NCBI GenBank assembly: GCA_963719875.1
Contig: CAVRDJ010000001.1
Coordinates: 186-64,185 of the forward strand
Direction: 5' to 3'
DNA: 64,000 nt
Source: an uncultured Acidobacteriota bacterium
GTDB lineage: Bacteria; Acidobacteriota; Terriglobia; Acidiferrales; UBA7541
Below the pieces are notes generated by a model. The model was given only the letters and a program-made list of their open reading frames with translations. It searched no databases and was not told where the DNA came from. The translations under genes were made by a program, and so were the position numbers. This document shows, one piece after another, positions 14,311-34,966 of this stretch (its first letter is position 1; every line of letters starts with the position of its first letter).

Positions 14311-14955
14311 ATGGGTGCAAGTACACCGCATTTCGAACCAACGGAAGCCGAGCTAATTCAGCGAGCGTGTCAGGGCGACAAAGAAGCCTTCTACAACCTG
14401 GTCCGCCCGTGTGAGCGGGCGGTCTATACTGCTGCAATGTCGATCCTCAAGAATCCCGAGGATGCCGAGGATGTCGCACAGGAAGCTGTGCTAAAGGCGC
14501 TTTCGCACCTGGCGGACTTTCGAGCGGAGGCCAAGTTCAGCACTTGGCTCATTCAGATCACCATTAACGAAGCGCTGCTGAAGTTGAGAAAGGCTCGCCG
14601 TCATCTATATGAATCCGTCGATGAGCCGCGGTCGGATGAGGACGGTGAGTACTTTCCGAAGGACTTCGCCGACTGGCGCGAGATACCTTCTGAATCGCTC
14701 CAACGGATGGAGCTGAGAGAAGGACTAAACCGCGCTATCGCTTCTCTATCACTTAAGTACAGGGAAGTGCTTATACTGAGGGACGTCCAACAACTGAGAA
14801 TCGAAGAAGTGTCTCGGATTCTTGGGATCACCGCGGGGAGCGTGAAAACCCGTCTCTTGCGGGCTCGCCTGCAAATGCGAGAAGCGCTAGCTCCTGGGAT
14901 AGACGGCAGCTGGAGCATGGGCAAGCCGGGATATCAAAAGGTACGGCCGTGGTAG
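14311..14955 (+). CDS. ECF-type sigma factor (paralog of 6931-7623)
   Basis: Region 2 (DAEDVAQEAVLKALSHLADFRAEAKFSTWLIQITINEA) and region 4 (YREVLILRDVQQLRIEEVSRILGITAGSVKTRLLRAR). Confidence 0.85.
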   Translation: MGASTPHFEPTEAELIQRACQGDKEAFYNLVRPCERAVYTAAMSILKNPEDAEDVAQEAVLKALSHLADFRAEAKFSTWLIQITINEALLKLRKARRHLYESVDEPRSDEDGEYFPKDFADWREIPSESLQRMELREGLNRAIASLSLKYREVLILRDVQQLRIEEVSRILGITAGSVKTRLLRARLQMREALAPGIDGSWSMGKPGYQKVRPW

Positions 14956-14994
14956 GAATCGGCGGGCTAAGAGTTTGAAACAAATTGGTAACTG

Positions 14995-15240
14995 GTGCAT
15001 CGCATGAGAGTGATTGAAATCAGCTGCTTAGAGGTCTGGCGAGAGATCTCCAATTACATTGACGACGACGTCGATGCCGAATTGCGCGCGAGGATGGAGG
15101 CTCACTTCAAAGTGTGCGCCCACTGCAAGGCCGTTCTCGATGGAACGAGGAATGTTGTGAAGCTAATAGGGGACGGCGTTGAATATCAAATGCCTGACGG
15201 TTTCAGCCAGCGGCTTTACGATAGGATTAAGAATGCATAG
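14995..15240 (+). CDS. short soluble anti-sigma factor (zf-HC2 only)
   Basis: CLEVWREISNYIDDDVD...HFKVCAHCKAVLDGTRNV matches the N-terminus of 7614-8207. It has no TM segment. The start may be the ATG at 15004. Confidence 0.7.
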   Translation: MHRMRVIEISCLEVWREISNYIDDDVDAELRARMEAHFKVCAHCKAVLDGTRNVVKLIGDGVEYQMPDGFSQRLYDRIKNA

Positions 15241-15279
15241 GAAATGCGCGATTTAGTTAGCTGCATCACCCGTCGTCTT

Positions 15280-15756
15280 CTAGGATCCCATCGATCCTCC
15301 GCCGGTTTCAGATCGTTCCTCACTGAGGAACCAATGGCTGACCTGACCCAACCGTTCCTCAGGAACGTCCAGGTTGTTGATGAAGAAACAAATCTTCCAA
15401 TCGCCGGATGAGTTTTTCTTCCACAATTCAAGATACCGATGCCTTTTGCGGATCGTCTTTCCCGCGTTCTTGGGAGTAAGAGTGAACTCGTGCCAGCCAA
15501 AATCGTACGCAGTATTGCCGAAAACAGCAATCTCGCCGACGATAACCGCTAGTCTTACTGAAAACTCCGCGAACAACTTAGTCGAATTTTCGCGAAGTCC
15601 TTCCCTAGCGGCCCCATCAGAGCGGGTTGGTCCCCCCTCGGACATATCCATAATGTTTTCTTCCCCGAAGACGGAGAGTAGCTGGTCCACATCTCCACAG
15701 TTGTAGGCTTCTCGAAATTCGGTCTTTGCAACGTTGATACGGTAGACATCGTCCAT
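15280..15756 (-). CDS. SnoaL-like / DUF4440 (NTF2-fold) protein
   Basis: 158 aa with the pattern ...EFREAYNCGDVDQLLSVF...GNTAYDFGWHEFTLTPK...RYLELWKKNSSGDWKI, typical of the NTF2-like DUF4440 family. Confidence 0.7.
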   Translation of the reverse strand: MDDVYRINVAKTEFREAYNCGDVDQLLSVFGEENIMDMSEGGPTRSDGAAREGLRENSTKLFAEFSVRLAVIVGEIAVFGNTAYDFGWHEFTLTPKNAGKTIRKRHRYLELWKKNSSGDWKICFFINNLDVPEERLGQVSHWFLSEERSETGGGSMGS

Positions 15757-16188
15757 CCTCGTCGGCCTCCATCAAGCGTCCTCGTTGAGGACCCATTTTA
15801 AGCATGGATAGTATTCACACTTCGAGTACAACGCAAGAGGAGGGCGGTGATGCCAAGCTTTACGAGGAGTGCTGGACCCGCGAATGTCTCCGTCTCGGAT
15901 GGAACCTCGAGGGAAAGACCGCTGGATCACGATCCTTAACCACTGATTCGCGACCGCTGGCATAGCGGAGCACCCTGAAGTACATCTTTGAGGACGCTGC
16001 AAGGATGTAACATTCCTTACAATCGAAATTGGTCTTGAAACCTTTTCTCTGATTGACTATCGAACTAACATGAGAAAGCGAGCCAAATCCGTTTTGGCGC
16101 CGCTCGCGGCCACGATTGCCATCTTCACCGAAAATTCGATGGCAATCGCAGCGACCGCGCGGGGTTAGCGGACGTAAGCGCTACCAAT

Positions 16189-16982: not shown

Positions 16983-18296
16983 TCAATCGGCCCTGTCTTG
17001 GCGCGCCTGCACGGCGGTTCCTGCGATTCGTGCTGCCGCGATCTTGGGTTGCTTTGGCGGATCGGTCTCGCGGCGTGAAATCATTGGCGCGCGAATTTCC
17101 AGAAACTGAACGAGATCCTTTGAAAAAATCAGGTCGAGCGTCCAGTCGAAAGCAACGCGCAATTTCTTCTCGAACCGCGGAAGCTTGCTCAGATAAATCG
17201 TCCGCCAGAGCCACCAGGCGATAAACCCCGAAAAGTTGATCCCCAGGATGTTGGCAACACCGGTCCGCCGGCCGATCGCAGCGAGCTGTGCGATTACCGA
17301 ATACTGAAACTGCTTCTGGTCGATCCCACGAACCACTGCGATCACGTTGTGCGCTACGATCCTGCCCTGACGAAAGGCATGCTGTGCGGTGGGCGGATGA
17401 AATCCACCCTTCTGCCGATCAGGTATCGCGGAGCAATCGCCCAAAGCCCAGACGCCCGGCCAATCCTGAAGTTCGAGACATTCAGTGACAAGCAGACGGC
17501 CGCGCTCCTTTGCGCAAGGTACGGTTTCGAGCAAAGGATTCGGAGAAGTTCCGGCGGTCCAAACGAGCGTGTTCGTTTCGATCGCGGTGCCATCACTCAA
17601 TCGGACCATCTGGCCAGAAAAGCTTTCCACCTTTTTGTTCAAGTGAATTTCCACTTTGCGTCCAGAAAGTTTTCGCTCGGCGTAATTGCCTAGCGTCTCC
17701 TCCAATTCTGGCAAGATGACTGGCCCAGAATGGATAAGGACGACTCGCAACATGTTTTCCGTTAGGTTGGGGTACGAGCGCAGTGCTCCGCGAACAAGAT
17801 CGTTGATACCCGCGACTGTCTCGACCCCCGCAAAACCGCCCCCCGCAACCACGAACGTCAACAGTGGCTCTTTCACTTTGCAGCAATCGCTATCCGCCTC
17901 CTCCAAGTGAGCGATGAGATGGTTCCGCAGGCGCATGGCGTCACCCAAAGATTTCATTGTTAATGCAGATTCCTGCAACCCGGGAAGCCCATAAAAGTTC
18001 GTAACCGAACCCAAGCCGAGGACCAGGAAATCAAACTCAAGCGTGTGGTGATGATGGTCGAAACCGTGGGAAACGACGACTTTCCTTTGCTTGATATCGA
18101 TCTGCTCGACCTCCCCTGCAAAAAAATGTGCACTCCGGAGCAACTTGCGGACAGGATTTACGATTGTTGTGAGATCCAAGTCGCTGGCCGCGACCTCGTG
18201 AAGCATGGGCGTGAATAAGAAAAAGTTCTCACGATTAACGAGTGTCACTTCGACGCTCGCATCCCGACCGAGTCCCTTTTCCAACTCCATGGCCAC
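16983..18296 (-). CDS. type II NADH dehydrogenase-like FAD/NAD(P) oxidoreductase (start problematic)
   Basis: 437 aa from the GTG at 18296 with NDH-2-like sequence (second dinucleotide fold VVAGGGFAGVE, GDCS motif). The first GxGxxG (RKRVLILGSGFGGLT) is encoded in frame upstream of 18296, where no ATG/GTG/TTG exists before the stop at 18366-18368. Confidence 0.75.
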   Translation of the reverse strand: MAMELEKGLGRDASVEVTLVNRENFFLFTPMLHEVAASDLDLTTIVNPVRKLLRSAHFFAGEVEQIDIKQRKVVVSHGFDHHHHTLEFDFLVLGLGSVTNFYGLPGLQESALTMKSLGDAMRLRNHLIAHLEEADSDCCKVKEPLLTFVVAGGGFAGVETVAGINDLVRGALRSYPNLTENMLRVVLIHSGPVILPELEETLGNYAERKLSGRKVEIHLNKKVESFSGQMVRLSDGTAIETNTLVWTAGTSPNPLLETVPCAKERGRLLVTECLELQDWPGVWALGDCSAIPDRQKGGFHPPTAQHAFRQGRIVAHNVIAVVRGIDQKQFQYSVIAQLAAIGRRTGVANILGINFSGFIAWWLWRTIYLSKLPRFEKKLRVAFDWTLDLIFSKDLVQFLEIRAPMISRRETDPPKQPKIAAARIAGTAVQARQDRAD

Positions 18297-18429
18297 CGTA
18301 AGGCCGCCGAAGCCGCTGCCGAGAATGAGTACCCGCTTCCTCCGTGGCGAATTTTCCGTGCCCCCTCAATTCAAGATAAAATGATGTCTCTTCAGCAGTG
18401 GAGATGCCAAATACCTTAAGTATGCGGAT

Positions 18430-19263
18430 CTAATTCGAAAGTTGTGCCGATCCTACTCCCAGGACTCTACCGAGACCCGTTTCCTGCACGATCGCTATGA
18501 TCCTCAAGTTCCGCTGATCCGCGTTTCCGATACTGACTGTGACATCCTTGGAGAACGTGCCGCCGTCGTCGATGGTTCCCACCCGGGCCAAGTTTCGCGC
18601 GACCGCCACGTGTTTGAGAATTCTTCCCGAGTTCTCTCCGCCCCTGACACTCGATTGATCGCTGTTGTCAGCTAACGCGATCAAGACTTGTGCCGGCGCC
18701 CGCCGTCCTGAGGAAACGAACGGACCAGTCTCGATGTGCACTGCAAGCGTGTTGTTGCCCTCGCGGTGAATTGAAGACAAGGCTACCGGCAGCTTGACAG
18801 TTTTGATGCTGTTCTCGATAACCCGAATGGCCCGCCGCTCATCACTGCCGACCAATTCCATCTCTCCGTCAACAACCATCTGAGGCGTGTAAGGACTATC
18901 GAGACGAAAACGATGCGCGTAATCGCCTTGACGAACGCTGAACTCATGAGATGAATACGGATCCTTCCATCCGATGTCATCCCAATAGTCGACATGTTCG
19001 CTAAGGACAATTAGATCAGCGTCGCGTACCGGCTGAGAGCGACCCAATCTTTCGAGAAGCGCGTCTGCGGGAGGGCAGTCCGAACAGCCCTCGGAAGTGA
19101 ACAGTTCGACTAGCACAGGGGTACGTGTATTGTTGGCGCTACTATTTGTCTCGGCCGCATTCGTGGCCAGAGGATGTTGGAGGGTGAGTATCGTTAAACA
19201 AGAGATCGCAATGAAGGCAAGAATTAGAAACCAGCGACGCATCATGGTGGCCATCCTTGTCAA
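18430..19263 (-). CDS. DUF1223 thioredoxin-fold protein, secreted
   Basis: Signal/TM segment, then PVLVELFTSEGCSDCPPADALL, typical of DUF1223. TTG start at 19263, with an alternative ATG at 19254. Confidence 0.75.
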   Translation of the reverse strand: MTRMATMMRRWFLILAFIAISCLTILTLQHPLATNAAETNSSANNTRTPVLVELFTSEGCSDCPPADALLERLGRSQPVRDADLIVLSEHVDYWDDIGWKDPYSSHEFSVRQGDYAHRFRLDSPYTPQMVVDGEMELVGSDERRAIRVIENSIKTVKLPVALSSIHREGNNTLAVHIETGPFVSSGRRAPAQVLIALADNSDQSSVRGGENSGRILKHVAVARNLARVGTIDDGGTFSKDVTVSIGNADQRNLRIIAIVQETGLGRVLGVGSAQLSN

Positions 19264-19578
19264 ACTAGATTCAAACTGAACTTCATGGAGCCATTCGTTT
19301 GACTTACGGTTAAGAATAAAGTTTCACATTTTCCGGAGCCTGAGATTTATTCAATCCGGCAGGCCGGAGCGTCACGGAGATGCGCGTAAGGAGCGACGAC
19401 GGACCTGGCCACATGTCAGTCCCGCCGTCACACCTTGCTGAGATTTACCAGATAGCCCTCAAAGAAAGCTGAATTCCACGCGGATTGTTTGACACAGTAT
19501 CCAGCGCGCCCGCATTGGGAATTGGGGCCCCACTCAACGTGAACGGGGCTTGGTTCGCGTAGCCCGACGTGCAACCGT

Positions 19579-20064
19579 TTATTTGGCACGTGCTGGTCGG
19601 AGGGCTTCACCTGCGCTCCAAATGGCAGCGCCAAGCAAGAAGACATCCTTCATAATGAAACCCTGAGTGCCAGAGTCCAAGCCAGGCGTTGTCACAAGAA
19701 AACTTAGAGTCGTAAGAAACATGAGGATGGCGCCGGCACTGCCTACAGCGCACAGCTTCGGCGACCAGTGGCGGATAGCGATCAATAATCCGATTACCAA
19801 CTCCACGATGCCAATTAATTCCGAACCCCTCTGGATGTTCATGACTTGGTAGATCCATGACAGGAAGGGGCTGTGCGCTACCAGAGGGTGGATGCCTTCA
19901 GCTTCGGCTGCCGTCCATTTTTGGGCGCCGAAGAACAGCAACGTCAGCACGAGGCCGTAGCGCAGAATTAGAGTTCCTGTAATTTCGAGTCTCGTCGCGA
20001 TTGTTAAACCCTTCTCCGCGCTGCTGCTGGGGAAGGGCCTTGTTGCAGTAATGAGTTCCTCCAT
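19579..20064 (-). CDS. DUF417 (YkgB-like) membrane protein
   Basis: LRYGLVLTLLFFGAQKWTAAEAEGIHPLVAHSPFLSW...GIVELVIGLLIAIR. I prefer the ATG at 20064 with an AAAGGAA RBS over the GTG at 20109. Confidence 0.75.
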   Translation of the reverse strand: MEELITATRPFPSSSAEKGLTIATRLEITGTLILRYGLVLTLLFFGAQKWTAAEAEGIHPLVAHSPFLSWIYQVMNIQRGSELIGIVELVIGLLIAIRHWSPKLCAVGSAGAILMFLTTLSFLVTTPGLDSGTQGFIMKDVFLLGAAIWSAGEALRPARAK

Positions 20065-20246
20065 CGAAGTGTTCCTTTCTGGTTTGCTCAGTTCGTACGT
20101 TTCGCGCACCCATCAAAACGAGCATCAGTACTTTTCTAGGATGAACACGGCTGCGAAAGGTTTCACCATCGCTGAAACATTTCTTGCGATCGGAATCGGA
20201 TTGAAACCTTTTCATGCGTCGGCTATCGAACGGGCAGGAGGAACTT

Positions 20247-20953: not shown

Positions 20954-21448
20954 CGGGACTTCGCGTCATATGCTTCCTGCGCTTGTCCAGGCGCGGGTTT
21001 GTAATGAAAACGGACGCTCCGGACCTTTTCATGATGAGGGATAGGCCGCCGGCGCCGGTGGCGTTCGCGCCGCGAATGGCGGCTCTCCGGTCGCCTTCGG
21101 CTCCCTGCGATCCGTCATTCGCAAACCCCCTTCCGTCGGAGGTTGTGCTATAAACTGTGTCACACACCGTGGTACAAAAACTCCATCAGGTCAGGTCGGC
21201 GGCTCTCTAACAGTAGACCGAATCACCAGATAAGTCCTGTCTGGGGCTGTGGTGTGCCCCATTGCTTCTGTAACACCAACGTAAAAATTAGTGAAGTTGT
21301 GTAACCTTTTCTGCTTTGAACGCTCCAATGTGTGGCCGCGTTACCTGATGGCTTCGCGTTCTGTCGCTGGTCGGTCTTCTCTTGCGGAAGGTGAGTGAGA
21401 GTGTATCTGCGGCAAATCCAGGATTGTCCGAACAAAGGAGAAAACTTC

Positions 21449-22054
21449 ATGGAACTGAAACAGATACTGAATGGGTCCGCACGATGGTCGCGGCTGTTCG
21501 TGGCTGTGGTAGCTATTGCACTCGCCGCGAGCGTGTCGCTGGCCGGACTCCCGCAAGTACTACGCGCGCAGAACTCGAACTCGTTCCAGAACCCAAGCGT
21601 CGTCTTGCCGCTCATTCACTGTTGGTACAAGGGCAAGGTGGCCTACTACATTCAAACTGAAGCATCGGATGAGGCTCTCGCACAACAGCAAAACGTCAAT
21701 TATGTTCCTCGGCTCTCAAATGCAATTGCGGCCGGCGCGGTGGATGACATCTATCACGTCACAAATTTCAATCAAGGAAACGTGATCCCTTCGGCCCCAA
21801 TCCCTGCGGGCCCAACCAACACTGATCCCAATTACACGCCGATTTGGCAGCTCAGCTTGGTCACCTGGAAATCCGGAACCGCTCCGCACGTGCTCAAATC
21901 CGAAGAAGAGGTATTGAACGCTCAGTCTCAGAATTTGCTCGACATTGTGAAGACCAACATCGTTATCAACTGCCCTGTGATTTATACGCCGGCAGGTGGT
22001 CTCCTTCCAACTGCCAAGATCATTGGCGACTACGAAAACCAGAGCAACCGATAA
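21449..22054 (+). CDS. hypothetical secreted protein
   Basis: AAAGGAG RBS and ATG at 21449 with a signal-like segment (LFVAVVAIALAASVSLAG). I recognise no family. Confidence 0.6.
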   Translation: MELKQILNGSARWSRLFVAVVAIALAASVSLAGLPQVLRAQNSNSFQNPSVVLPLIHCWYKGKVAYYIQTEASDEALAQQQNVNYVPRLSNAIAAGAVDDIYHVTNFNQGNVIPSAPIPAGPTNTDPNYTPIWQLSLVTWKSGTAPHVLKSEEEVLNAQSQNLLDIVKTNIVINCPVIYTPAGGLLPTAKIIGDYENQSNR

Positions 22055-22497: not shown

Positions 22498-23835
22498 CTA
22501 TTTGTGGCGGATGTCCATCGGTGCGCGGATGCGATCGAACGGCAGAATTCGGAGTTGCCACTTGACCGGGACAGAAGCCGGCAAGTAACAGATCGTTTTG
22601 TCACATGCCTGGTACTCGAGCTTCCCCGAGATGGTGACCACCTTGCCTTCTTTTCCAAGTACACCCAAGGCGCCCCCCGTGCTTACCTTGGCAATCTGGC
22701 TAATACGGAATGTACCCTCAAACACGGCCACCTTCTCCTTGATTGCCGGAAGATAAAGAACTTGCGACGCCGGGTAAACCGCCGGGTCGAAATCCAGTTC
22801 CGGGATACGGTCGAGCACGAGCCGAATCGGCTTATATCCCTGAGCGCCCGGCGCATAGACGTGCACATCCGGGGGTAGACGGACTTCGGCCACCAGGGTA
22901 ATGTTCGTACCAGAGATGCCTTCGGGATCCGACTGTTCGAGCGCCACTTGAAGATGCGGCGCCTCGACGATTCCCGTGACTTCCTCGCCCAACTGCGGGA
23001 ACAGTTTCAAAACAAGGCTGTTTCCGGTGAGCCTTTCCCGGTACTTGGGGTCGAAAAACTTTTCTCGTATGATCCCGTTGGGATCGATAAAGAAATATCC
23101 TGGGCGAGCGTAGCCCGTCTGCATGCCAAAAGCTTCTTCATTCAGAACGCCGTAAGCGCGGATCGTTTTCGAGTCCAGGTCCCCGAGCAACGGATATGTG
23201 ATCTTTTCTCGTCCGGAGTAAAACTTCAGGATATCCAGGGAGTCGTAGCTGATCGCGGCGAGCTTGACTCCTTCCTTCTCGAATCGCGGGATTGCGCTTT
23301 GCAACTGGACCAGCTGCTCTTTGCAGAACGGTCACCAATCCGCCGAACGGAAAAAGAGCAGGACAGTGCCCTTTGGTCCCTTCAGCGTGTCCAGAGTTTG
23401 CATGTGGCCGAATTGGTCGGGAATCGAAAACGCGGGAGCTTTCTGGCCCACCGCCAAGCCGATTGACATCGGTCCGACGACGGCCTTCTGAATCACATCG
23501 CCATTGAGGATGCCCTTGACGGTCACCGCATCTCCCAAATGAGCGGCAACGGGCCCCTGCGGGTCAACTTCGTACATGACGCGGGTCGTATCGTCCAGCA
23601 AAGACAGCTTCGCGCCGGGCTGGTCCTTATAGCAGTCGGGAATTTCCATGAACGCTTCATCAGCGTTGCAGGCGCTGGACACAAGGATCCCGGACCACAC
23701 TCCGGGACTAGTTGTATTTCCCTGCGCCGCTATGGCTAGGGCAGCCGCAAAATGCAGTGCGGTCGTGGCAACGAGAATGCGTTTTGTGAACGAATTAAGC
23801 CGACGCATTATTCTTGGGCTCCACTTCGTTTGCAA
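22498..23835 (-). CDS. candidate selenoprotein: secreted peroxiredoxin-like (AhpC/TSA-redoxin, U-P-F-C) fused to a DsbD-N/DsbC-like domain
   Basis: ORFs 23332-23835 and 22498-23304 share one frame and are joined by a TGA (23332-23334) plus 9 sense codons. Read-through gives LLFFRSADW-U-PFCKEQLVQLQ...VKLAAISYDS. The C-terminal part carries KLEYQACDKTICYLP. A signal peptide is at the N-terminus. Confidence 0.6.
23301..23317 (-). promoter_or_regulatory. SECIS-like hairpin downstream of the in-frame UGA
   Basis: mRNA positions +18 to +34, counting the U of UGA as 1, read GCAGCUG-GUC-CAGUUGC. This is a 6-7 bp stem with one G-U pair and a GGUC-containing apical loop. UGC (+10 to +12) and GCA (+40 to +42) can extend the base. 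Confidence 0.4.
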
Positions 23836-24748: not shown

Positions 24749-25543
24749 ATGGGAATGATCATGCCCCCTCCTGGTGATGAGTTTTATTATGCGCGCATCG
24801 TTGAGCGGAGGGACATTTCAGAAGGTCTATTGGTGGTGCAAGTGGATCCAGGCGGGGATTTTTCGTTCGTGCCAGGTCAATACGCGACACTTGGCGTCTT
24901 TGCTCCCGGAAAACATTATGAACGCGCGTATTCGATTGTTTCCGCACCACACGAAAGGTTCATGGAATTCTTCATCGAATTAGTGCCGCACGGCGACCTA
25001 ACGCCGCGGCTTTTCTCGCGCCGCGTCGGCGAAGAGCTCACTCTTCGGAAGAACGCCAAAGGTCGCTTCACACTCGATGCCACCAGCAGCCGAACGAACC
25101 ATCTTCTGGTTGCAACCGTAACAGGAGTGGCCCCCTTTGTCAGTTATGTGCGATCTCTTTATCGACAGTGGAAGGATGGAAGCTTTGCCGGCGAGCACAA
25201 ACTGTTCTTGCTCGAGGGCGCCAGCCGTTCCTGGGAGCTAGGCTACAGCGAGGAACTGCAACGGCTGAGCAATGAAGTCCCATGGTTTTTTTTCTCGCCG
25301 ACGATTAGCCGCCCTTGGGACGATGTTGATTGGAAGGGCGAACGAGGACGAGTCGACGAAGTGGTCCGAAAGTACGCCGATCATTGGGAATTGGCTCCCG
25401 AAAACACGACCGCGTATCTCTGTGGCCACCCTACCATGGTTGACAATGTCAGGGGCATTTTGCACCGCAGAGGATGGCAAAAAAACAGCATCAAGGAGGA
25501 GCTCTACTTTATCTCGGCCAAGAAGGCTGCACGCACCGGCTAA
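24749..25543 (+). CDS. ferredoxin-NADP reductase-like FAD/NAD(P)-binding oxidoreductase
   Basis: 264 aa with an RAYSIVS FAD-binding motif, GVAPFVS NAD(P) motif and C-terminal YLCGHPTM, the plant-type FNR-fold pattern. Confidence 0.75.
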   Translation: MGMIMPPPGDEFYYARIVERRDISEGLLVVQVDPGGDFSFVPGQYATLGVFAPGKHYERAYSIVSAPHERFMEFFIELVPHGDLTPRLFSRRVGEELTLRKNAKGRFTLDATSSRTNHLLVATVTGVAPFVSYVRSLYRQWKDGSFAGEHKLFLLEGASRSWELGYSEELQRLSNEVPWFFFSPTISRPWDDVDWKGERGRVDEVVRKYADHWELAPENTTAYLCGHPTMVDNVRGILHRRGWQKNSIKEELYFISAKKAARTG

Positions 25544-25760
25544 GCCGTCCTGTCGATGGGGCGCTTGGCGCCTCCCGGATTGACAGCCTCCGGAGCGTTC
25601 GGAACACCTTGCTGGCAGCTACCCGAATATCTGGTCGACCGCCTTTACCTCGTGTTTTCGTTTTTGGAAATCTATCAGTATCCGACAGGTTGAGAGGCAG
25701 CCTGCGCCTCAACCGTATTCGGAAGGCTGAACGCTGATTCGGTCAATAGGAGAGCGTCGC

Positions 25761-26687
25761 GTGAATAATGTGATCATTATCGGCAGCGGCTGCGCGGGAA
25801 TGACGGCTGCCATTTACGCTGGGCGCGCCAATCTGAAACCTGTGGTGATCGACGGGCTGGAACCCGGCGGCCAGCTTGCGCTAACGACAATGGTTGAGAA
25901 TTGTCCCGGATTTCCCGACGGCATTCTGGGCCCGGACCTGATTGAAAATATGCGCAAGCAGGCGCTGCGCTTCGGCGCGGAATTCAAATCCGGCGCGATC
26001 TCGGACGTCGATCTCAGCAAGCGGCCGTTCAAGATCACCGCGGGTAAACAGACTTATGAAACTCAGGCGCTGATTATTGCCGCCGGCGCGACCGCGCGCC
26101 TCATGGGGCTGGAGTCCGAGCGTAAATTAATCGGCTACGGCGTTTCGACGTGCGCCACGTGTGATGGCTATTTCTTCCGCGGCAAGGATATTGCCGTGGT
26201 GGGCGGCGGCGATTCGGCCATGGAAGAAGCGAATTTTCTTTCGCGGTTTGCCAGCAAAGTGTATCTGGTTCACCGGCGCAGGGAATTTCGCGCCTCTAAA
26301 ATCATGGTGGACCGCGCGCGCGCCAACGAAAAAATTCAATTCGTGACTCCTGTGATCGTCGAAGACATTTCAGACGTGACCAAGGGCGGCGTGGAAAACA
26401 TGACCCTGCGCAACGCGGAGACGAATCAGGCCTCAACGCTTCCGGTGTCGGGAATCTTTATCGCCATCGGCCACGTTCCGAACACCAAGGTGTTTCGGGG
26501 CAAGTTGGACATGGACGAAAACGGTTACCTCATCACACATCACGGCAGCCAGACCAAGATTCCCGGCGTTTTCGCCGCCGGCGACGTGCAGGACCACCAC
26601 TACAAGCAGGCGGTCACCGCGGCAGGCTCGGGTTGCATGGCCGCGATCGACGCGGAGAAATTTCTCGAGATGCGCGCGGACGTCTGA
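25761..26687 (+). CDS. trxB: thioredoxin-disulfide reductase
   Basis: 308 aa from a GTG start with GSGCAGMTAAIYAGRA, the redox-active CATCDG, VVGGGDSAMEEA and GVFAAGDV. Confidence 0.9.
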   Translation: MNNVIIIGSGCAGMTAAIYAGRANLKPVVIDGLEPGGQLALTTMVENCPGFPDGILGPDLIENMRKQALRFGAEFKSGAISDVDLSKRPFKITAGKQTYETQALIIAAGATARLMGLESERKLIGYGVSTCATCDGYFFRGKDIAVVGGGDSAMEEANFLSRFASKVYLVHRRREFRASKIMVDRARANEKIQFVTPVIVEDISDVTKGGVENMTLRNAETNQASTLPVSGIFIAIGHVPNTKVFRGKLDMDENGYLITHHGSQTKIPGVFAAGDVQDHHYKQAVTAAGSGCMAAIDAEKFLEMRADV

Positions 26688-26989: not shown

Positions 26990-29900
26990 ATGAAAAATGG
27001 AGATTTGTGTCCGTACATTGATATTACTCGTCACGATCAAAATGACGAAAAGGTTTACTGCCCACAGGGAGCCTGTAGACCGGTGAAGGTGTGCGACGCA
27101 AGCTTAAGCAAAGCGAGCGTCTTGCTTTTCCTGCTTCTAGTCCTTGCGATCGTTGCACCGACCACGGCTCTTCACGCGCAAGTGTCTGGAGCGACCTTAG
27201 CCGGCACGGTCACAGATCCCTCGGGCGCCGTCATACCAAACGCCGAGTTGTCGATCCAGAACGTGTCCACGGGAGTAACGCGGAAACTGACCACGGATTC
27301 GGCCGGTTTTTACTCGGCTCCCAATTTAATGCCAGCGACGTACGAAGTTATGGTTACGGCGGCTGGCTTCGAGACGACAATTCGAAAGGGAATAACACTG
27401 ACAGTGGGCGCGCAGCAAGTAATGAATATCTCCATGAAAATTGGCGGCTCGACTCAGCAAGTCGAGGTCACGACTGGAGTTTTGGGCGTCGAATTGGCTT
27501 CGTCCGAGATTAGCGGAGTCGTTACTCAGAAGACCGTCGTGGATCTGCCCTTGAACGGGCGCGACTGGACCCAACTTGCCACTTTACAAGCTGGCGTCGA
27601 TTCGCTCGGTTCGGTGCAGACGGATGCCGGCACGAAGGACCGTGCGCGCAGAGGGTATGGCGTGGAACTTTCGATCTCCGGCAGCCGCCCGTCGCAACAA
27701 AACTATCGCATCGACGGCATCAGCGTGAACGATTACGCCAACACCAGCCCGGGAAGCGTTGAAGGCGCAACCCTGGGCGTGGACGCCGTGCAGGAGTTTT
27801 CCGTTCTGACCAACAATTACGCCGCCGAGTACGGACGGACGTCCGGCGGGGTAGTTAACGCCGTTACCAAGTCCGGCGCGAACGATTTCCATGGAAACGT
27901 GTTTGAGTTCTTGCGCAACAGCGCTCTCGACGCCGCCAATTTCATCGATAACGCCAACGGTAACCCCAAGCCTAACTTCGTGAAAAACCAATTCGGCGGT
28001 TCCATTGGCGGTCCGATCAAGAAGGACCGCACCTTCTTCTACGCGGATTATGAGTCGCTTCGCCAAAGCGAGGGAATCACCACGCAGACTTTCGTCCCCT
28101 CGGCCGCTATTCGCGGGATCGGCACTGGCCCGGGAGGTGGACCGGGGCCTTCGACGGTGTGCAGCATCCCGCAGCCGACCTGCACGACCATGACGCTCGG
28201 CCAGTTCGTGGCAAATAATGGGGAGAGGATCCTGCATCCCGACCCTGTAACGGGTATCGACTCATCGGTCGTACCCTACCTCGGCCTATGGCAACTCCCC
28301 AACGCGGGGCTCGTTGGCAACGGCGACCAAGGAATTTACGCCTTTACTGCGGGCGTGTTGACCATAGAAAACTTCGGGAACATCCGAATCGATCACAAGT
28401 TTTCCGAAAAGGATAGTGTGACCGGCACCTACCAGAACGATCAAGCCATCGCGACGCAGCCGGACGCAAACAATGACGTCCTGGCAAACAACCTGACGAA
28501 CCGCCAGCTCATTTCGATTGAAGAGACCCACATCTTCAGCCCGCAATTGATTAACACTGCCCGATTTGGCTTGAACCGCTCCGTGCACACCGGAGGGGGC
28601 ATATCCGCCATCAATCCCCTGGCCGCAAATCTGGCCCTCGGGGAAAGCGCAGGGTCCGATAACCCCCAAATTGACATATTGGCAGGCGGATATAACTCCA
28701 TTCAACCGGGTGTGAATCAGGTAGAAGTCGTGAACTTCTTCCAGAATTCATGGCAAGGCTACGATGACCTGTTTCTGTCCAAGGGAATTCACAGCCTGAA
28801 ATTTGGGTTTGCCGTGGAGAACATCATTACGCTTACCGCCAACCCGGCCCCTGCGGGCGATGTCCAATTTGCGTCGCTGTACGAGGATACGCAACACGGC
28901 GGGTTGCTTCTTAACAGTCCCTTGAGCCTGAATGGCCCGGTAAACACTGTTTTTCCGCAACTCGATTTTCACACGACAATTTTCGGTGGTTACGTCCAGG
29001 ACGACGTTCGCCTGCGACCCACGCTGACGCTGAATCTGGGATTGCGTTACGAAACATCCACCGTGCCGAATGAGGTCAATGGCAGGCTCTCCGCCCTTTC
29101 GTCTCCCTTTAACCAGACCGTGCCGTTTATCGGCCATACGGTTTTCCAGAATCCCACGCGTCGCAACTTTGAACCGCGCGTGGGCTTCGCCTGGGATCCA
29201 TTCGGCAACGGCAAGACTTCTGTCCGGAGCGGCTTCGGATTGTTTGACGTCCTCCCTCTGGCGTATGAATTCGGGCAGTTTGCCACCAACGCCGCGCCTT
29301 TTATTCAGAACGGCTTTATTTCGACCACCTCCGCGACGAACCCATTAGTGCAGGGAGATTTTCCGACCATCGCATTCAACAAATTGGCCGCCAATGTGGC
29401 CCAGGGCCTCAGCGAGCGGTTTCCGTACGTTGAAAATAAGCCGAAGCGCAGCTATGTGTTGCAATGGAACCTCTCCATTCAGCGAGAGCTTTTGCCGGAT
29501 TTAACCGCGACGATTGCGTACGTGGGTTCCCGGGGCATTCACCAGCTGTTCCGGGCCGACGACATCAACGTCCCGCTGCCCACTCTGACGTCTGCCGGTT
29601 ACCTTTTTCCCGCGAGTGGCGCTCCGAAACTGAGCCCCAATGTTGGACAGATCGATACGCTACAGTGGGGCAACGATTCGTTCTACCATGGCTTGGAATT
29701 GCAAGTTACCAAGAAGCTGAGCCAGGGCTTTCAAGTTGGCGGCAGCTACACGTGGAGCAGGGCGATTGACGGAGGCGATGGGTCGATCGCTAGCGACTCT
29801 TTCGTTAACTCAATTCCGAATCTCCTCTTCTTTGCTCCCTCGACCCGGCGCGGGCCTTCCGACTTCAACATAACCCAAAACGTGACCATAAATTTCCTGT

Positions 29901-30481
29901 GGCTCGTGCCCAGCCCGTTTCACGGTGTGGGCGGTAAATTGACGCACGGCTGGCAGGTGGGCGGGATTTTCACCGGTCGGACTGGACTGCCGTTCACTCC
30001 TCTAATCGGTGGCGATCCTCTTGGCCAAGGCAACGCGGGACCGTTTGATTATCCGAATCGGTTGGGGGGCCCAGGTTGCGCTTCCTTGGTCAATCCCGGC
30101 AACAGGGAAAACTATATCAAGACACAGTGTTTCGCGTTGCCGCAGAGCACGCCCGCGATCGCCTCCCAATGCAATCTATTTGGGAACATACCGGGCACCT
30201 GCGCGAATCTGCTGGGTAATGCGGGCCGGAATGTTATCAATGGTCCCGGACAGGCGGATTTTGATTTTTCCCTGGTTAAACAAATAAAGATCAACGATCG
30301 CTTTGGCTTGGAGTTTCGCTCGGAGTTTTTCAATGTAATCAATCACCCGAACTTTAACGCCCCCATCGCCAACAGCGCAATTTTCAATGCGGACGGAACC
30401 ATTCCGGCAAGCCCAGGACAAATTCTCTCCACCTCCACCACGGCGAGAGAGATTCAGTTTGGGTTGAAATTGGCCTTTTGA
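26990..30481 (+). CDS. TonB-dependent receptor with carboxypeptidase-regulatory-like domain
   Basis: 1163 aa with an AAGGAGG RBS. CarboxypepD_reg (ATLAGTVTDPSGAVIPNAELSIQN...ATYEVMVTAAGF), plug (VVDLPLNGRDWTQL) and barrel ending FGLKLAF. Confidence 0.9.
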   Translation: MKNGDLCPYIDITRHDQNDEKVYCPQGACRPVKVCDASLSKASVLLFLLLVLAIVAPTTALHAQVSGATLAGTVTDPSGAVIPNAELSIQNVSTGVTRKLTTDSAGFYSAPNLMPATYEVMVTAAGFETTIRKGITLTVGAQQVMNISMKIGGSTQQVEVTTGVLGVELASSEISGVVTQKTVVDLPLNGRDWTQLATLQAGVDSLGSVQTDAGTKDRARRGYGVELSISGSRPSQQNYRIDGISVNDYANTSPGSVEGATLGVDAVQEFSVLTNNYAAEYGRTSGGVVNAVTKSGANDFHGNVFEFLRNSALDAANFIDNANGNPKPNFVKNQFGGSIGGPIKKDRTFFYADYESLRQSEGITTQTFVPSAAIRGIGTGPGGGPGPSTVCSIPQPTCTTMTLGQFVANNGERILHPDPVTGIDSSVVPYLGLWQLPNAGLVGNGDQGIYAFTAGVLTIENFGNIRIDHKFSEKDSVTGTYQNDQAIATQPDANNDVLANNLTNRQLISIEETHIFSPQLINTARFGLNRSVHTGGGISAINPLAANLALGESAGSDNPQIDILAGGYNSIQPGVNQVEVVNFFQNSWQGYDDLFLSKGIHSLKFGFAVENIITLTANPAPAGDVQFASLYEDTQHGGLLLNSPLSLNGPVNTVFPQLDFHTTIFGGYVQDDVRLRPTLTLNLGLRYETSTVPNEVNGRLSALSSPFNQTVPFIGHTVFQNPTRRNFEPRVGFAWDPFGNGKTSVRSGFGLFDVLPLAYEFGQFATNAAPFIQNGFISTTSATNPLVQGDFPTIAFNKLAANVAQGLSERFPYVENKPKRSYVLQWNLSIQRELLPDLTATIAYVGSRGIHQLFRADDINVPLPTLTSAGYLFPASGAPKLSPNVGQIDTLQWGNDSFYHGLELQVTKKLSQGFQVGGSYTWSRAIDGGDGSIASDSFVNSIPNLLFFAPSTRRGPSDFNITQNVTINFLWLVPSPFHGVGGKLTHGWQVGGIFTGRTGLPFTPLIGGDPLGQGNAGPFDYPNRLGGPGCASLVNPGNRENYIKTQCFALPQSTPAIASQCNLFGNIPGTCANLLGNAGRNVINGPGQADFDFSLVKQIKINDRFGLEFRSEFFNVINHPNFNAPIANSAIFNADGTIPASPGQILSTSTTAREIQFGLKLAF

Positions 30482-30646
30482 GAAACGAGTCGATCAACGC
30501 ACGAGTCCGTGTGCTAGTTGATTAAGATCTGGAGCGATTGCGCGAAGCAGGCATGGCGTGGTCACGGCGGCTAAATAGGCTTCTCCAGGGATTGATTTGT
30601 CGGGAAGAGTACTTGACGACCGTTAAAAATGCCGTAGGGAGAGGAC

Positions 30647-32734
30647 ATGACGAGAAAAAATCGGACCCAGGTTGTGGTCCTCTGCACTGCAATCGCTCTC
30701 ACGCTCGCTGGAGCCGCGGGGTGGTCCCCTGCGTCTCCGGCGAACGCACGTAGTTCTCAAACTGCGTTGGGTCAGTCAGCGCCGGAAATACCCACGGACG
30801 ATCTACAGCGATCGATTAGAATCGACAGTTACACGGAGGTGGCTGACAGCGGGCCACGAAGAGGAGAAAATCTATACTTTTTTAAGTGCTGGATGTGCCA
30901 CAACCAGTATGCGCAGGCAGGGCCTTACTTGAAGGATGTTTACAGTCGCGCGACTCTAATGTCCGGCAAGCCTGTCAGCGATGAAACAGTAAGGGAGCAG
31001 ATCAAGAACGGCGGGCCTTGGATGCCGGCTTTTGGAACGACCTTATCCGATCCCGACATAGCGGATCTGCTAGCTTACATTAAAGAAGGTAAATGCTGCA
31101 TCGAAGGAGAGGAGCTTCCGCCGAATCCCTGGTATCGGGCCGTCGCACACAGGTGGCCGGTCCAGACCGCCGTTGCGGGTGGCGCGAAGGGAATCATACG
31201 CATTTCAAGCGGAGATTCGCCAGAAGGGATCGGTGTGCAGTTGATCGCCCCGAATGGCGTCAGAACTACTGTCTACACCGACGTCGAGGGAAAATACGAA
31301 TTCCCCGAGATGCAGGCAGGTACGTACACTTTGCGGATTCCAACGCCACTGACCTTTAAGCCTTATCGTCGAGATTCGGTCCGAATTGACGGCGCGACGA
31401 AACTCAACGAGATTGTCCTGGATCGAGTTTCCAAAACGGACAGCCTGCCCGCAACCGCTCAGATCAGATCTCAGCTAAGCGGTGCGGAGCTGTTGTGGAA
31501 CCTGCCCGGCACAGGGGAGGAAAAGGCAACTTTCCAAAAAGTATGTTCGCCCTGCCATGAATGGCAACAGATTTTGCGGAACCATTACGATGAGCGTAGC
31601 TGGACGGCAATCGTAGACCGGATGACTCATTACTACAGCGCTCCTCTCGTCGTTCGAATTAAAGGGGCGGCAGTCCTGGGATCGAATGATCAAGACGACG
31701 ACGTCATTGTGAAATGGCTGTCGAGAGTCCGGGGCCCTCAGTCGCAAGACGCACCGTTACGCGCGTTTCCTCGTCCAAGCGGAACCTCCAGTCGGGCTGT
31801 CGTCACCGAATATGAAATGCCTCAATCACTCCTTACACCTCATGATGTCGCAGGCGACTCGAAGGGCAACATCTGGTTTACCAGCCATAAGTCACGATTC
31901 ATCGGCAAGCTCGATCCTCTGACGGGCATCGTGACCGAATACACGGTTCCTCTGACGCCCGGCGCGATGCCTGGGACTCACCGCATCACGGTGGACAAGA
32001 GCGATATTGTTTGGTTTTCAGAACCCTGGGCACACGTTTTAGATAGGCTTGATCCGCGAACGGGGAAAATCACGCGCTTGCCCATAGAAGTTCCCGAGCC
32101 TCTTAATGTTGCGGGATTTAGCAATTTCGCCTTGGCGCCGGACGGTTTCATCTGGGATAACCAGGACAATCAGGTCCGAAAGATTGATTCCGAAACAGGC
32201 AAAATCTTGCGGGAATACCCAAACCAAGTCAAATTCAGTTACGACAACCTGATTTCCGCGGATGGGAAGTATTGGGCGGGGGGCGGGCCCCCTGGATACG
32301 GGAATACAGTGGAGCGCTTAGATCTTCAGACAGGCAAATTGACAGGACTGAACACGGGCAACCATATGGCAACCGCAAAGAGAGGTGGATTTGACCCCTC
32401 GGACAATGCGTGGTTCGGTGGCGGTGACGGCGCGCTCATCGAGCTGAATGGAAATACGGGCCGTATTGTTGAGCATTGGCCTCCGACTCCACCTAGCCCG
32501 CTTACCGATTTCTATGAGGCTATGCCGGACAAGAATGGAGACGTGTGGGCTGCGGTATTACACGGACGCCAGTTTGTGAGGTTTAGTCCCCGAACGTCTC
32601 GGTGGACCGTCTACCAGCTACCGGAGCCGTTTGCGTATGACCGAAGAACTTGGATCGATAATTCCACGGTTCCAGTAACAGTCTGGTACGTAGACTATGA
32701 TGGATATTTGGTCCGCCTCCAACCTTTGGAATAG
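30647..32734 (+). CDS. secreted cytochrome c (two CxxCH motifs) / CarboxypepD_reg-like / Vgb-like beta-propeller fusion protein
   Basis: 695 aa with a signal peptide. Heme motifs CWMCH (with GGPWMPAFG downstream) and CSPCH. A middle Ig-like segment (GVQLIAPNGVRTTVYTDVEGKYEFPEMQAGTYTLRI). Six to seven repeats of the type GNIWFTSHKSRFIGKLDPLTGIVTEY. Confidence 0.8.
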   Translation: MTRKNRTQVVVLCTAIALTLAGAAGWSPASPANARSSQTALGQSAPEIPTDDLQRSIRIDSYTEVADSGPRRGENLYFFKCWMCHNQYAQAGPYLKDVYSRATLMSGKPVSDETVREQIKNGGPWMPAFGTTLSDPDIADLLAYIKEGKCCIEGEELPPNPWYRAVAHRWPVQTAVAGGAKGIIRISSGDSPEGIGVQLIAPNGVRTTVYTDVEGKYEFPEMQAGTYTLRIPTPLTFKPYRRDSVRIDGATKLNEIVLDRVSKTDSLPATAQIRSQLSGAELLWNLPGTGEEKATFQKVCSPCHEWQQILRNHYDERSWTAIVDRMTHYYSAPLVVRIKGAAVLGSNDQDDDVIVKWLSRVRGPQSQDAPLRAFPRPSGTSSRAVVTEYEMPQSLLTPHDVAGDSKGNIWFTSHKSRFIGKLDPLTGIVTEYTVPLTPGAMPGTHRITVDKSDIVWFSEPWAHVLDRLDPRTGKITRLPIEVPEPLNVAGFSNFALAPDGFIWDNQDNQVRKIDSETGKILREYPNQVKFSYDNLISADGKYWAGGGPPGYGNTVERLDLQTGKLTGLNTGNHMATAKRGGFDPSDNAWFGGGDGALIELNGNTGRIVEHWPPTPPSPLTDFYEAMPDKNGDVWAAVLHGRQFVRFSPRTSRWTVYQLPEPFAYDRRTWIDNSTVPVTVWYVDYDGYLVRLQPLE

Positions 32735-32857
32735 TTGGCAAAATGATGATCTCCCGCAATGAGAATGGCAAGCCCTTCTCTGAGGAGAGAGTTGTTGGAT
32801 GTTTTGGATGGCGTGTGCCGCGAGCTAGGGAAATGCTTTGGTTAAACGGGGGCTATT

Positions 32858-34966
32858 GTGCAGAGACGAAGGCATAGTTTTTCGCAGTCCGCAATTCTAT
32901 TTTCTCTGACCATCGTATTCGCTCTGATTGCAGTGGGGGCGGTAAACAGTAGGTCGGCTCGCGGGAACGCGACGCCGCCAGACTCTCAGTCCTCTTCACC
33001 AATATCCACCCCGGGCGACGATCTAAAGCGCTCCTATAGGACCGACCACTACCTCGAAGTCGCGGAAAGCGGGGCGGACCGCGGGGAAAATATTTATTGG
33101 CATAAGTGCTGGGCCTGCCACAACCAATATCAACAGGCAGCGCCTCAGCTGGAAGGCCTTTTCAAGCGCGCCGCTCTGATCACCGGAGTTCCCGTCAACG
33201 AGGAAAATGTAGCCGCGCATATCAAAAAGGGCGGGCCGGGAATGCCCTCGTTTGGCACGACCCTCGCCAACGCCGATGTAGCCGATGTGGTTAACTATCT
33301 GCACAGTGACAAATGTTGCGTTGAGGGAGAATCGCTTCCGGCCAATCCGTGGTACCGATCGCAAACGAATAAATGGACCGTGCAGAGCGGCCTCTCCGGC
33401 GGAGCCACAGGGGTAGTGCGCGTGACCAGCGGTGATTCGCCCGAGGGCGTGATGGTGCAACTCATCGCGCCAAACGGTGTGCGCACCACCGTCTACACCA
33501 ATGAAGACGGAAAATATGAATTCCCAAAAATGCGGTCCGGTGCTTACACGCTGCGGATCGCGAATCCGCTGGAATTCAAACCCTACCGGCGGGATGCCGT
33601 GCAAATCGACGGCTCCGTCAAATTAGAAGACATTGTGCTGGAGCGAATTACCAAGACACGCGCGCTGCCAGCCACGCCGGAAGTGGAATCGCAGCTGAGC
33701 GGCGAGGAAATTCTGTGGAATCTTCCGGGCACAGTGGAGGAAAAAGAGGCGCTGCACGCCACTTGCGCCCTGGGCTGCCATTCCTTCCAGCAGATTTTCA
33801 AGAATCGCTATGACGAGCGCAGCTGGGGCGTGCTGGTGGCACGCATGTTGCATCGCGGAGGCGGTCCGCTGATCAACGATCCGCTGGAGCCGGTGATTGA
33901 GTCGCAGCAGGCCACCGACAGAATGCTCACCAAGTGGCTGGCGCGAGTGCGCGGGCCGGAATCGGTGGATGAGCCGATGTACGCGTTTCCTCGGCTGACT
34001 GGAGAATCCAATCGCGTGGTGGTCACCGAATTCGAGTTGCCGCGGGCGCTGCAAAGCGCGCACGATGTTTACGGAGACGGTAATGGAACTATTTGGTACA
34101 CAAGCCACCTGAGCCGCTTCTTCGGAAAGCTCGATACACGCACGGGCATCGTGACCGAATACCAGACTCCTCTGACCCCAGGCGCGCAGCCGGGCACGCA
34201 TCACGTCTACGTGGAGAAGAATGGCGAAGTGCTCATTTCCGAGCCGTGGTCGCATAAGTTGCTGAAGCTCGATCCGCGAAACGGCGAAATGGCCGAAGTG
34301 CCCGTGGCGGCGCCCTTCCCGATCAACTCGGCGGGCATGGCCGATTTCGATTTGACGCCGGACGGATATGTGTGGGCCAGCATGGGCGGAGGATACGCCG
34401 CCGAAAAGATCGATCCAAAAACAGGGAAGACGGTGCAGAAATTTCCGATGAAGGTTCCCTTCAGCTATGACGGCATCATTTCCCAGGACGGAAATTTCTG
34501 GGCTGGTGGCGCGATTTCCGGGACAACGGGAAACTCCGCCGAGCTGCTGGACATTCGAACGGGTCAAATGCTCAATTTGAATTCCGGAGACCGGCGGTCG
34601 GCCGGGCGCAGGGGCGGATTCGATCCGTTCGGGAATGCCTGGTTCGGCGGCGAGAACGGAACTTTGGTGGAACTGGACGCCGCCGCCAAGCGTATCCGGG
34701 AATTTTATCCTCCCGGGCCAGTCGATCCCTACACAGATCTGTATTCCGTGGAACCGGATAAGAACGGCGAAGTGTGGGGCGGCGAATTGCACGGGCGAGA
34801 ATTTCTGCGATTCAACCCGAAAACGGGCCATTGGACCGAGTACGCCATGCCGGAGCCGTATTCACATTCGCGTGCGGTTTGGGTGGACAAGTCCACGACG
34901 CCGACCACCGTTTGGTACGCTGATTACAGCACCGGGCGCATCGTTCGCATTCAGCCATTAGAGTAG
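32858..34966 (+). CDS. paralogous cytochrome c (two CxxCH motifs) / CarboxypepD_reg-like / beta-propeller fusion protein
   Basis: 702 aa from a GTG start with the same architecture (CWACH, GGPGMPSFG, CALGCH, propeller repeats). It is collinear with 30647-32734 over the full length. Confidence 0.8.
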   Translation: MQRRRHSFSQSAILFSLTIVFALIAVGAVNSRSARGNATPPDSQSSSPISTPGDDLKRSYRTDHYLEVAESGADRGENIYWHKCWACHNQYQQAAPQLEGLFKRAALITGVPVNEENVAAHIKKGGPGMPSFGTTLANADVADVVNYLHSDKCCVEGESLPANPWYRSQTNKWTVQSGLSGGATGVVRVTSGDSPEGVMVQLIAPNGVRTTVYTNEDGKYEFPKMRSGAYTLRIANPLEFKPYRRDAVQIDGSVKLEDIVLERITKTRALPATPEVESQLSGEEILWNLPGTVEEKEALHATCALGCHSFQQIFKNRYDERSWGVLVARMLHRGGGPLINDPLEPVIESQQATDRMLTKWLARVRGPESVDEPMYAFPRLTGESNRVVVTEFELPRALQSAHDVYGDGNGTIWYTSHLSRFFGKLDTRTGIVTEYQTPLTPGAQPGTHHVYVEKNGEVLISEPWSHKLLKLDPRNGEMAEVPVAAPFPINSAGMADFDLTPDGYVWASMGGGYAAEKIDPKTGKTVQKFPMKVPFSYDGIISQDGNFWAGGAISGTTGNSAELLDIRTGQMLNLNSGDRRSAGRRGGFDPFGNAWFGGENGTLVELDAAAKRIREFYPPGPVDPYTDLYSVEPDKNGEVWGGELHGREFLRFNPKTGHWTEYAMPEPYSHSRAVWVDKSTTPTTVWYADYSTGRIVRIQPLE

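Follow-up and report, generated by a model that had tools for sequence, protein, structure and literature searches.

We analyzed a stretch of 64,000 nucleotides from contig CAVRDJ010000001.1 of an uncultured Acidobacteriota bacterium (the whole of it is called the window here), and specifically a gene on its minus strand that is split by one in-frame TGA and is a candidate to encode a selenoprotein. The minus-strand frame 22498..23835 has exactly one internal stop, the TGA at 23334-23332, as read directly from the sequence. Nine sense codons lie between this TGA and the TTG at 23304, the restart point in the mechanical list of open reading frames (ORFs), and the frame stays open for 277 codons, past that restart, until the TAG at 22500-22498. 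Reading through the stop gives the peptide ...GTVLLFFRSADW-[TGA]-PFCKEQLVQLQSAIPRFEKEG..., with the local context LLFFRSADW-TGA-PFCKEQLVQLQ. An earlier note on this DNA had described two minus-strand ORFs in the same frame, split by one TGA and nine codons, with 277 further codons open after the stop; both the coordinates and the frame were confirmed. The complete selenoprotein gene would cover 22498..23808 (436 codons plus the TAG), with the TGA for selenocysteine (Sec) as codon 159, a delimitation based on the homologs and on the architecture shared with them. The true start is probably the ATG at 23808, judging from homologs that align from that Met (MRRL.../MxKR...), and a GGAG located 10 nt upstream of it (23819..23822, minus strand) may act as a Shine-Dalgarno sequence.

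The TGA falls at the redox centre of a thiol oxidoreductase domain. The domain search, run with Cys substituted at codon 159, identified residues 120-249 (23062..23451, minus strand) as an AhpC/TSA domain of peroxiredoxin (Prx) fold, with a match to Pfam PF00578 (E 9.9e-30, 103.5 bits vs a cutoff of 26) and another to Redoxin (E 7e-16). A profile search against PDB gave as nearest relatives the BCP/PrxQ and AhpE peroxiredoxins (E 4e-18), and Foldseek gave a template modelling (TM) score of 0.8 with 33-37% identity to the AhpE of M. tuberculosis. As a structural reference we used the AlphaFold (AF2) model of P0016, a natural ortholog with Cys (predicted confidence, pLDDT, of 83 and predicted TM score, pTM, of 0.75), whose signal-like helix is followed by a small beta domain, then by the Prx fold and finally by a beta-sandwich. 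The redox motif U159-P-F-C162 (UxxC, 23323..23334, minus strand) opens the active-site helix, according to the alignment with BCP/AhpE and to the model. In that alignment the peroxidatic Cys of these proteins corresponds to C162 and their Ser/Thr to U159. Arg235, the catalytic Arg, is invariant, and the Pro of the Prx motif is replaced by Arg. On this alignment, the UxxC is a thioredoxin-like centre set on a Prx scaffold. The term peroxiredoxin-like, applied to the protein in the earlier note, is imprecise, as Sec replaces the Thr/Ser of peroxiredoxins at the active site and it is the second Cys that aligns with the peroxidatic one. None of the NCBIfam models came near its cutoff. All the Prx equivalogs were far below theirs, and so were the selenoprotein models PrxU (NF040737, 32.1 bits of 270), SelL-related (NF040769, 31.5 of 120) and WAxxUGC (NF041054, 16.4 of 300).

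To see what other members of the family carry at the position of the TGA, we turned to its homologs. A search at the protein level yielded 1587 relatives, about 430 residues long, and the residue at the TGA column was read in the 120 full-length proteins listed. It was Cys in about 100 of the 120 (W-C-P-[YF]-C) and Trp in the 16 closest of them. For the best match (P0001) the codon behind this Trp is a TGA in the DNA, read as Trp in the Joint Genome Institute (JGI) call, indicating that TGA had been treated as a sense codon in the gene call. The JGI calls with Trp at the Sec codon are P0001, P0003-P0014, P0076, P0087 and P0109, and P0001 is the one for which the DNA was examined. Short metagenome contigs had full-length calls named "peroxiredoxin" with Trp at this codon. 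On long contigs the gene had been called as C-terminal fragments of 205-268 residues under names such as "hypothetical protein", "DsbC/AhpC/TSA family" or "cytochrome c biogenesis DsbD-like protein". No full-length entry annotated with Sec was found in the public protein records searched.

When one genome per GTDB species was scanned, 269 relatives were found. The best 80 of them were scored, and all 80 had the TGA with both halves of the gene open, at 64-96% identity. These 80 are metagenome-assembled genomes (MAGs) of Acidobacteriota type (Acidoferrum, Acidoferrales, Terriglobales and Sulfotelmatobacter). When metagenomes were scanned with a Cys form as query, the TGA form still appeared in 59 of 80 loci. 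The 166 loci scored at the Sec codon (23332..23334 on the minus strand in the window) amounted to 141 with TGA and 25 with TGC/TGT. The 141 come from many separate assemblies and samples, with protein identities of 63-97% and both halves intact throughout. Besides, the ratio of nonsynonymous to synonymous change (dN/dS) downstream of the TGA was 0.10, 0.21 and 0.16 against the three nearest relatives (L002, L004 and L005, 95-97% identical and from separate assemblies), indicating that the part after the TGA is translated in the immediate clade of this organism. Many alignment columns of this part are invariant. Two predictions of the earlier note, that the TGA stands at the first Cys of W-C-P-x-C and that the downstream half has not decayed, agree with all these data. 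At least three switches between Sec and Cys are required by a neighbour-joining tree that comprised 137 Sec forms and 115 Cys forms, and repeated switching is the usual pattern in redox selenoproteins (PMC1794560).

Some individual loci deserve mention. Two of them have another codon at the Sec position, TCA (Ser) in L168:1076-2368 and GAA (Glu) in L169:45-1364, and both retain the full hairpin described below, which points either to a very recent loss of Sec or to an error of assembly. In addition, the gene, which is of typically acidobacterial type, was found in MAGs labelled as Verrucomicrobiia, Cybelea, Limnocylindria, Dormiibacterota, Formivibrio, Methylomirabilota, Udaeobacter and Limnocylindrales (L006, L012, L018, L022, L041, L043, L065 and L081). 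Binning contamination or mislabelling is the likely origin of these labels, the gene and its flanks looking acidobacterial.

The second line of evidence is the hairpin GCAGCUG-GUC-CAGUUGC (23301..23317, minus strand), which the earlier note had proposed as the Sec insertion sequence (SECIS) and which we found at that place. It extends over +18..+34 (the U of UGA being position 1), with a stem of 6-7 bp and an apex G-GUC-C. The family form is GCAGCUG-GUC-CAGYUGC, made from the self-complementary codons of Q-L-V-Q-L (CAG CUG GUC CAG YUG). The bacterial SECIS (bSECIS) model has an apical loop of 3-9 nt starting with G[G/U] on a stem of 4-16 bp, at 16-37 nt from the UGA, and a minimum free energy (MFE) of -7.5 kcal/mol or lower (PMC13188914). 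The hairpin lies within these four limits, with a loop GUC/GGUCC on a stem of 7/6 bp, a spacing of 21/20 nt and a family MFE of about -11 kcal/mol.

Selection on this structure was apparent at the nucleotide level. The Gly at +5 after the TGA was GGG in 124 of 126 Sec forms, with a synonymous entropy of 0.12 vs 1.66 in the Cys forms. In the same way, the Leu at +7 was CTG in 131 of 133 (0.13 vs 1.49), and for the Leu at +10 the values were 0.55 and 0.91. This freezing of synonymous positions was seen in the TGA forms only; the flanking codons were free, and the Pro that follows the TGA uses all four codons. The mean fold energy of a 28-nt window was -10.5 kcal/mol for Sec forms vs -5.9 for Cys forms. 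Stem pairs were counted in an alignment (A2) of 133 distinct TGA forms. Pair 30-40 was G-C in 119, A-U in 6 and G-U in 2, and pair 31-39 was C-G in 126 and U-A in 1. A change of G to A in the stem was always paired with a change of C to U in the partner, and none of 500 shuffles reached these values. The seventh pair was lost in 32 sequences with Glu replacing Gln, so that the functional unit is the 6-bp stem with a GGUCS loop. As anticipated in the earlier note, the structure accompanies the TGA: the 6-bp stem with a GGU loop was present in 125 of 133 Sec forms vs 2 of 23 Cys forms (Fisher p = 2e-17, uncorrected for phylogeny). A longer structure with a lower helix UGC/GCG was considered and dropped by eye, its 3' columns varying without compensation. 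The Rfam scan of the window gave no matches, and Rfam has no SECIS model, so that it is uninformative on the hairpin.

In one subclade of Cys forms (L098-L103, with about 74% identity to P0025) the codon is TGT, and a hairpin of seven pairs occupies the SECIS position. It is perfect in L098 and L103 (GCAAUUG-AUC-CAAUUGC) and has one or two G-U pairs in L099-L101, with a loop AUC, not GUC. Such a hairpin may be the remnant of a former SECIS, or may simply follow from the self-complementary codons of Q-L-I-Q-L.

The machinery for Sec incorporation was found next to orthologs of the gene. In three of them that are 73-75% identical (L006, L007 and L008) the gene is followed by convergent selB (TIGR00475, 321 bits, cutoff 242), selA (TIGR00474, 466 bits, cutoff 268), selD (TIGR00476, 347 bits, cutoff 125) and tRNA-Sec (Rfam RF01852, 57-66 bits, cutoff 47). 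SelB abuts the gene in L001 and L169 and lies 3 kb upstream of it in L019 and L064, and tRNA-Sec comes directly after it in L140 and L162, which are members of the other large Sec clade. These varied placements suggest that the linkage has arisen in several arrangements. The selD of L006-L008 provided an internal control. It has an in-frame TGA of its own (SSCAG-U-ASK) followed by a hairpin of 9 bp with the apex G-GUU-C, and the same GGUUC apex is present in 21 Sec forms of the redox gene. In L008 this selD occupies 14754-15860 on the minus strand and, likewise in L006 and L007, its TGA lies in LSSCAG-U-ASKLS, with the hairpin 33 nt on and a GUU triloop closed by G-C.

Taking all this together, we conclude with high confidence that the UGA is decoded as Sec and that the two fragments are one selenoprotein of 436 residues, probably an exported redox enzyme, a conclusion drawn from comparative sequence data. 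Several observations weigh against it. The copy of the hairpin in the window is weaker than the consensus, with one G-U pair and GAG replacing GGG, and its energy of -7.4 to -7.6 kcal/mol is right at the -7.5 threshold. Folded as a single copy it was no better than shuffled sequences (MFE of 71 nt, z = +0.34). Since single-copy folding is unremarkable, the case for the hairpin rests on the comparison with relatives. Even there, the number of independent compensatory events is small (perhaps 3-5), and the 6-bp stem is also kept in 9 of 23 Cys forms, because the codons of Q-L-x-Q-L are inherently self-complementary. RNAalifold favoured another fold, in which the GA of the UGA pairs with the loop and CUGC with GCAG (99% pairable). 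This alternative has five C-A breaks exactly at the places where the hairpin shows compensated changes of G-C to A-U, and for this reason we prefer the simple hairpin. Two negative results must be added. The first is the absence of selA, selB, selD and tRNA-Sec from the 64-kb window (tblastn with the SelA, SelB and SelD of L008, and Rfam scan). The second is that no conserved neighbour pointing to a partner was found when ORFs within about 7 kb were clustered across all loci long enough. Nothing besides the gene itself was common to more than 12 loci, so that no operon partner emerges.

Among the other explanations, the one that survives best is a read-through of the UGA without selenium, either by near-cognate insertion of Trp or Cys or by a reassigned code in which UGA is sense. 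It would account for the Trp of the JGI calls on short contigs and for a window without sel genes. Against it, TGA is an ordinary terminator in the window, closing 9 of the 26 long open frames, and within the gene the in-frame TGA is restricted to this one column. Besides, the column is the redox Cys of the homologs, and a Trp there would destroy the CxxC centre. The presence of tRNA-Sec, selA, selB and selD beside the gene in relatives, together with a SECIS-type hairpin under selection, also speaks for selenium, and we regard a selenium-free read-through as very improbable.

Slightly less probable still is that the TGA is a true stop and that two proteins are made, an N-terminal fragment of 158 residues and a protein of 268 residues re-initiated at the TTG at 23304. 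These are exactly the two ORFs of the mechanical list, public gene callers annotate the locus likewise, and C-terminal fragments of 205-268 residues are numerous in databases. The split, however, would cut through the Prx fold itself, after strand beta-1 and before the active-site helix, and would separate the UxxC motif, so that neither half should be able to fold. Strong conservation is seen in the nine codons from TGA to TTG (PFCKEQLVQ), among them that of the invariant Cys162. The restart codon itself is not conserved; in relatives it is mostly CTG, and their fragments have been called from far downstream (231 and 209 residues). The linkage of the gene to sel genes is also at odds with two separate proteins. 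Finally, a pseudogene or a sequencing or assembly error, in which a Cys codon TGC/TGT was mutated or misread as TGA, could appeal to the single substitution required, to the many homologs that encode Cys and to the TCA and GAA of L168 and L169 as proof that the codon can change or be miscalled, but it is hardly credible for 141 loci of such diverse assemblies and samples with both halves intact, low dN/dS downstream in the nearest relatives and a constraint on the hairpin nucleotides found in the TGA forms only.

Considering the gene as one selenoprotein, three further regions complete its architecture. Residues 1 to about 28 (23725..23808, minus strand) are a putative Sec-type signal peptide, recognized by eye (MRRLNSFTKRILVATTALHFAAALAIAAQG); the model of the ortholog has a helix at residues 2-19 with low pLDDT. 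Export to the periplasm is what the signal peptide and this low-confidence helix suggest. Behind it, residues ~35-112 (23473..23706, minus strand) form a beta-rich domain, delimited from conserved columns and from model strands with pLDDT 78-92. Cys47 is invariant in both alignments (15 and 107 sequences), and Cys59 is invariant in the alignment A1 and conserved in at least 90% of A3. This domain had no confident Pfam family; the only record was a "faint" match of orthologs to DUF5818.

The C-terminal region (residues 299-411, 22576..22914, minus strand) is an Ig-like domain similar to the alpha domain of DsbD (DsbD_N, PF11412). The match is just above threshold (27.4 bits vs a cutoff of 25), and the model shows a beta-sandwich with pLDDT 83-93. 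A DsbD-N domain following the Prx fold had been proposed in the earlier note, and the Pfam match bears it out. Cys402 and Cys407, in YQACDKTICYLP (22588..22605, minus strand), are a candidate redox pair, invariant in the alignments of 15 and 107 sequences. In hhalign, YQAC-DKTICYLP against YQGCADAGFCYPP places C402/C407 on Cys103/Cys109 of the E. coli DsbD-alpha (probability 5.6%, E 0.007); the sequence of the latter was confirmed against PDB 1JPE. A sequence search of PDB with the C-terminal domain alone gave no meaningful match. Apart from the signal peptide, nothing in the protein is a transmembrane domain, and the order is Prx fold first and alpha-like domain after it.

A mechanism can be proposed from these elements. 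The hairpin 23317-23301, inside the ORF and 21 nt after the UGA, would recruit SelB with Sec-tRNA(Sec). Once in the periplasm, Sec159 would be the nucleophile attacking a disulfide, a sulfenate or a peroxide, and Cys162 would resolve the intermediate to a selenenylsulfide. The pair Cys402/Cys407 may then exchange electrons with this selenenylsulfide centre, and the DsbD-alpha-like domain would link the enzyme to a membrane electron importer of DsbD/CcdA/ScsB type, by analogy with the DsbD relay and with ScsB-TlpA-PprX (PMC3322552). We give a redox relay through the DsbD-alpha-like domain about even chances. A wider proposal, which we make tentatively and consider rather unlikely, is that this protein, and not formate dehydrogenase, keeps the Sec trait alive in large parts of the soil Acidobacteriota as an uncatalogued exported selenium reductase. 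If this were true, the built-in DsbD-alpha module would carry electrons between the membrane importer and the selenenylsulfide centre, and an abundant periplasmic selenoenzyme of soils would have been systematically missed by public gene calls.

The genes around the candidate in the window are partly related to redox functions. Divergently upstream (24749-26687, plus strand) there are a ferredoxin-NADP-reductase-like gene (FAD_binding_6/NAD_binding_1) and a thioredoxin-reductase-like flavoprotein of 308 residues (Pyr_redox_2). Both are suggestive, but they are not conserved as neighbours in other loci. Downstream (16983-20109, minus strand) are an NDH-2-type protein (Pyr_redox_2/NDH2_C, 437 aa), a DUF1223 (277 aa) and a DUF417 (176 aa), and a DUF7482 gene lies on the opposite strand at 21395-22054. 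Further away (26990-34966, plus strand) we found a protein of 1163 residues with CarboxypepD_reg and an outer membrane beta-barrel (OMP, TonB-dependent-like), and then two paralogs of about 700 residues, each with a cytochrome c domain, CarboxypepD_reg and beta-propeller-like repeats (Vgb_lyase/DUF6923). A scan of the window for frames split by a single TGA gave no second candidate with a redox motif.

What is already known here is a UxxC oxidoreductase of AhpC/TSA type with Sec for Cys and a conventional bacterial SECIS. The exported architecture of three domains with a DsbD-alpha-like module appears to be uncatalogued in the table of PMC13188914, in the Global Ocean Sampling (GOS) survey (PMC2398784) and in the public annotations examined, and the same appears to apply to its prevalence in soil Acidobacteriota and to its recurrent linkage to sel genes. 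The gene is common, with the TGA form in at least 80 GTDB species representatives and in most soil metagenome matches. Public records have it only in two wrong forms, the C-terminal fragments and the "peroxiredoxin" calls (the one examined reads TGA as Trp), so that its recognition corrects many annotations. Together with the adjacent sel operons, it indicates that a major soil phylum uses Sec in an exported redox enzyme. A UxxC Prx fold fused to a DsbD-alpha-like domain suggests a compact electron relay of the envelope. The SECIS made of the palindromic codons of Q-L-V-Q-L is an example of a signal built from coding sequence and at the same time constraining it. The current understanding of Sec decoding is left standing, and the catalytic role is a proposal.

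The SECIS of E. coli fdhF offers the first comparison. Its apical loop begins with GGU (GGUC), as in the hairpin described here, and starts at about +22, vs +24/+25 in our case. Both hairpins lie inside the ORF right after the UGA, and ours fits the bSECISearch consensus quoted in PMC13188914. It differs by a shorter, perfect stem of 6-7 bp, which lacks a bulged U and for which a lower helix found no support.

By its domain and motif, the protein is a member of an already known group, the Prx-like thiol:disulfide oxidoreductase selenoproteins (PF00578, UxxC), which goes back to a prediction by Kryukov & Gladyshev (2004) and is included in Table 1 of PMC13188914. The GOS survey called these proteins "Prx-like 1" and found them abundant in marine metagenomes (PMC2398784). 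Their prototype is a Geobacter protein (WP_010940744.1), and the likeness to the group was established by domain and motif. Common to both are the AhpC/TSA domain, the Sec as first residue of UxxC, the many Cys homologs, the bacterial SECIS immediately after the UGA and the frequent exchange of Sec and Cys. The protein described here is, however, about 280 residues longer, with the extra signal peptide, the two-Cys domain and the DsbD-alpha-like domain with its Cys pair. It also comes from soil Acidobacteriota, whereas the family was defined in Deltaproteobacteria and marine sets.

With the BCP/PrxQ/AhpE peroxiredoxins it shares the fold, the position of C162 on the peroxidatic Cys and the invariant catalytic Arg (R235). 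Their signature PxxxT/SxxC reads RxxxxUxxC here (Pro to Arg and Thr to Sec) and thus departs from the canonical form. In the selenoprotein Prx (TxxU) the Sec replaces the peroxidatic Cys, while here it replaces the Thr. As for DsbD/ScsB, the common elements are an Ig-like DsbD_N domain, with a Cys pair in YQxC...CYxP that may be equivalent, and a partner of thioredoxin fold, in our case within a presumably exported protein. Here the membrane beta domain is absent, and the alpha-like domain is C-terminal to the presumed partner of thioredoxin fold. Compared with the E. coli DsbD alpha (PDB 1JPE and 1L6P), the spacing of the Cys is CX4C instead of CX5C and the partner uses selenium. The ScsB-TlpA-PprX system of Caulobacter is a precedent for reductive pathways that deal with peroxides and disulfides in the envelope (PMC3322552).

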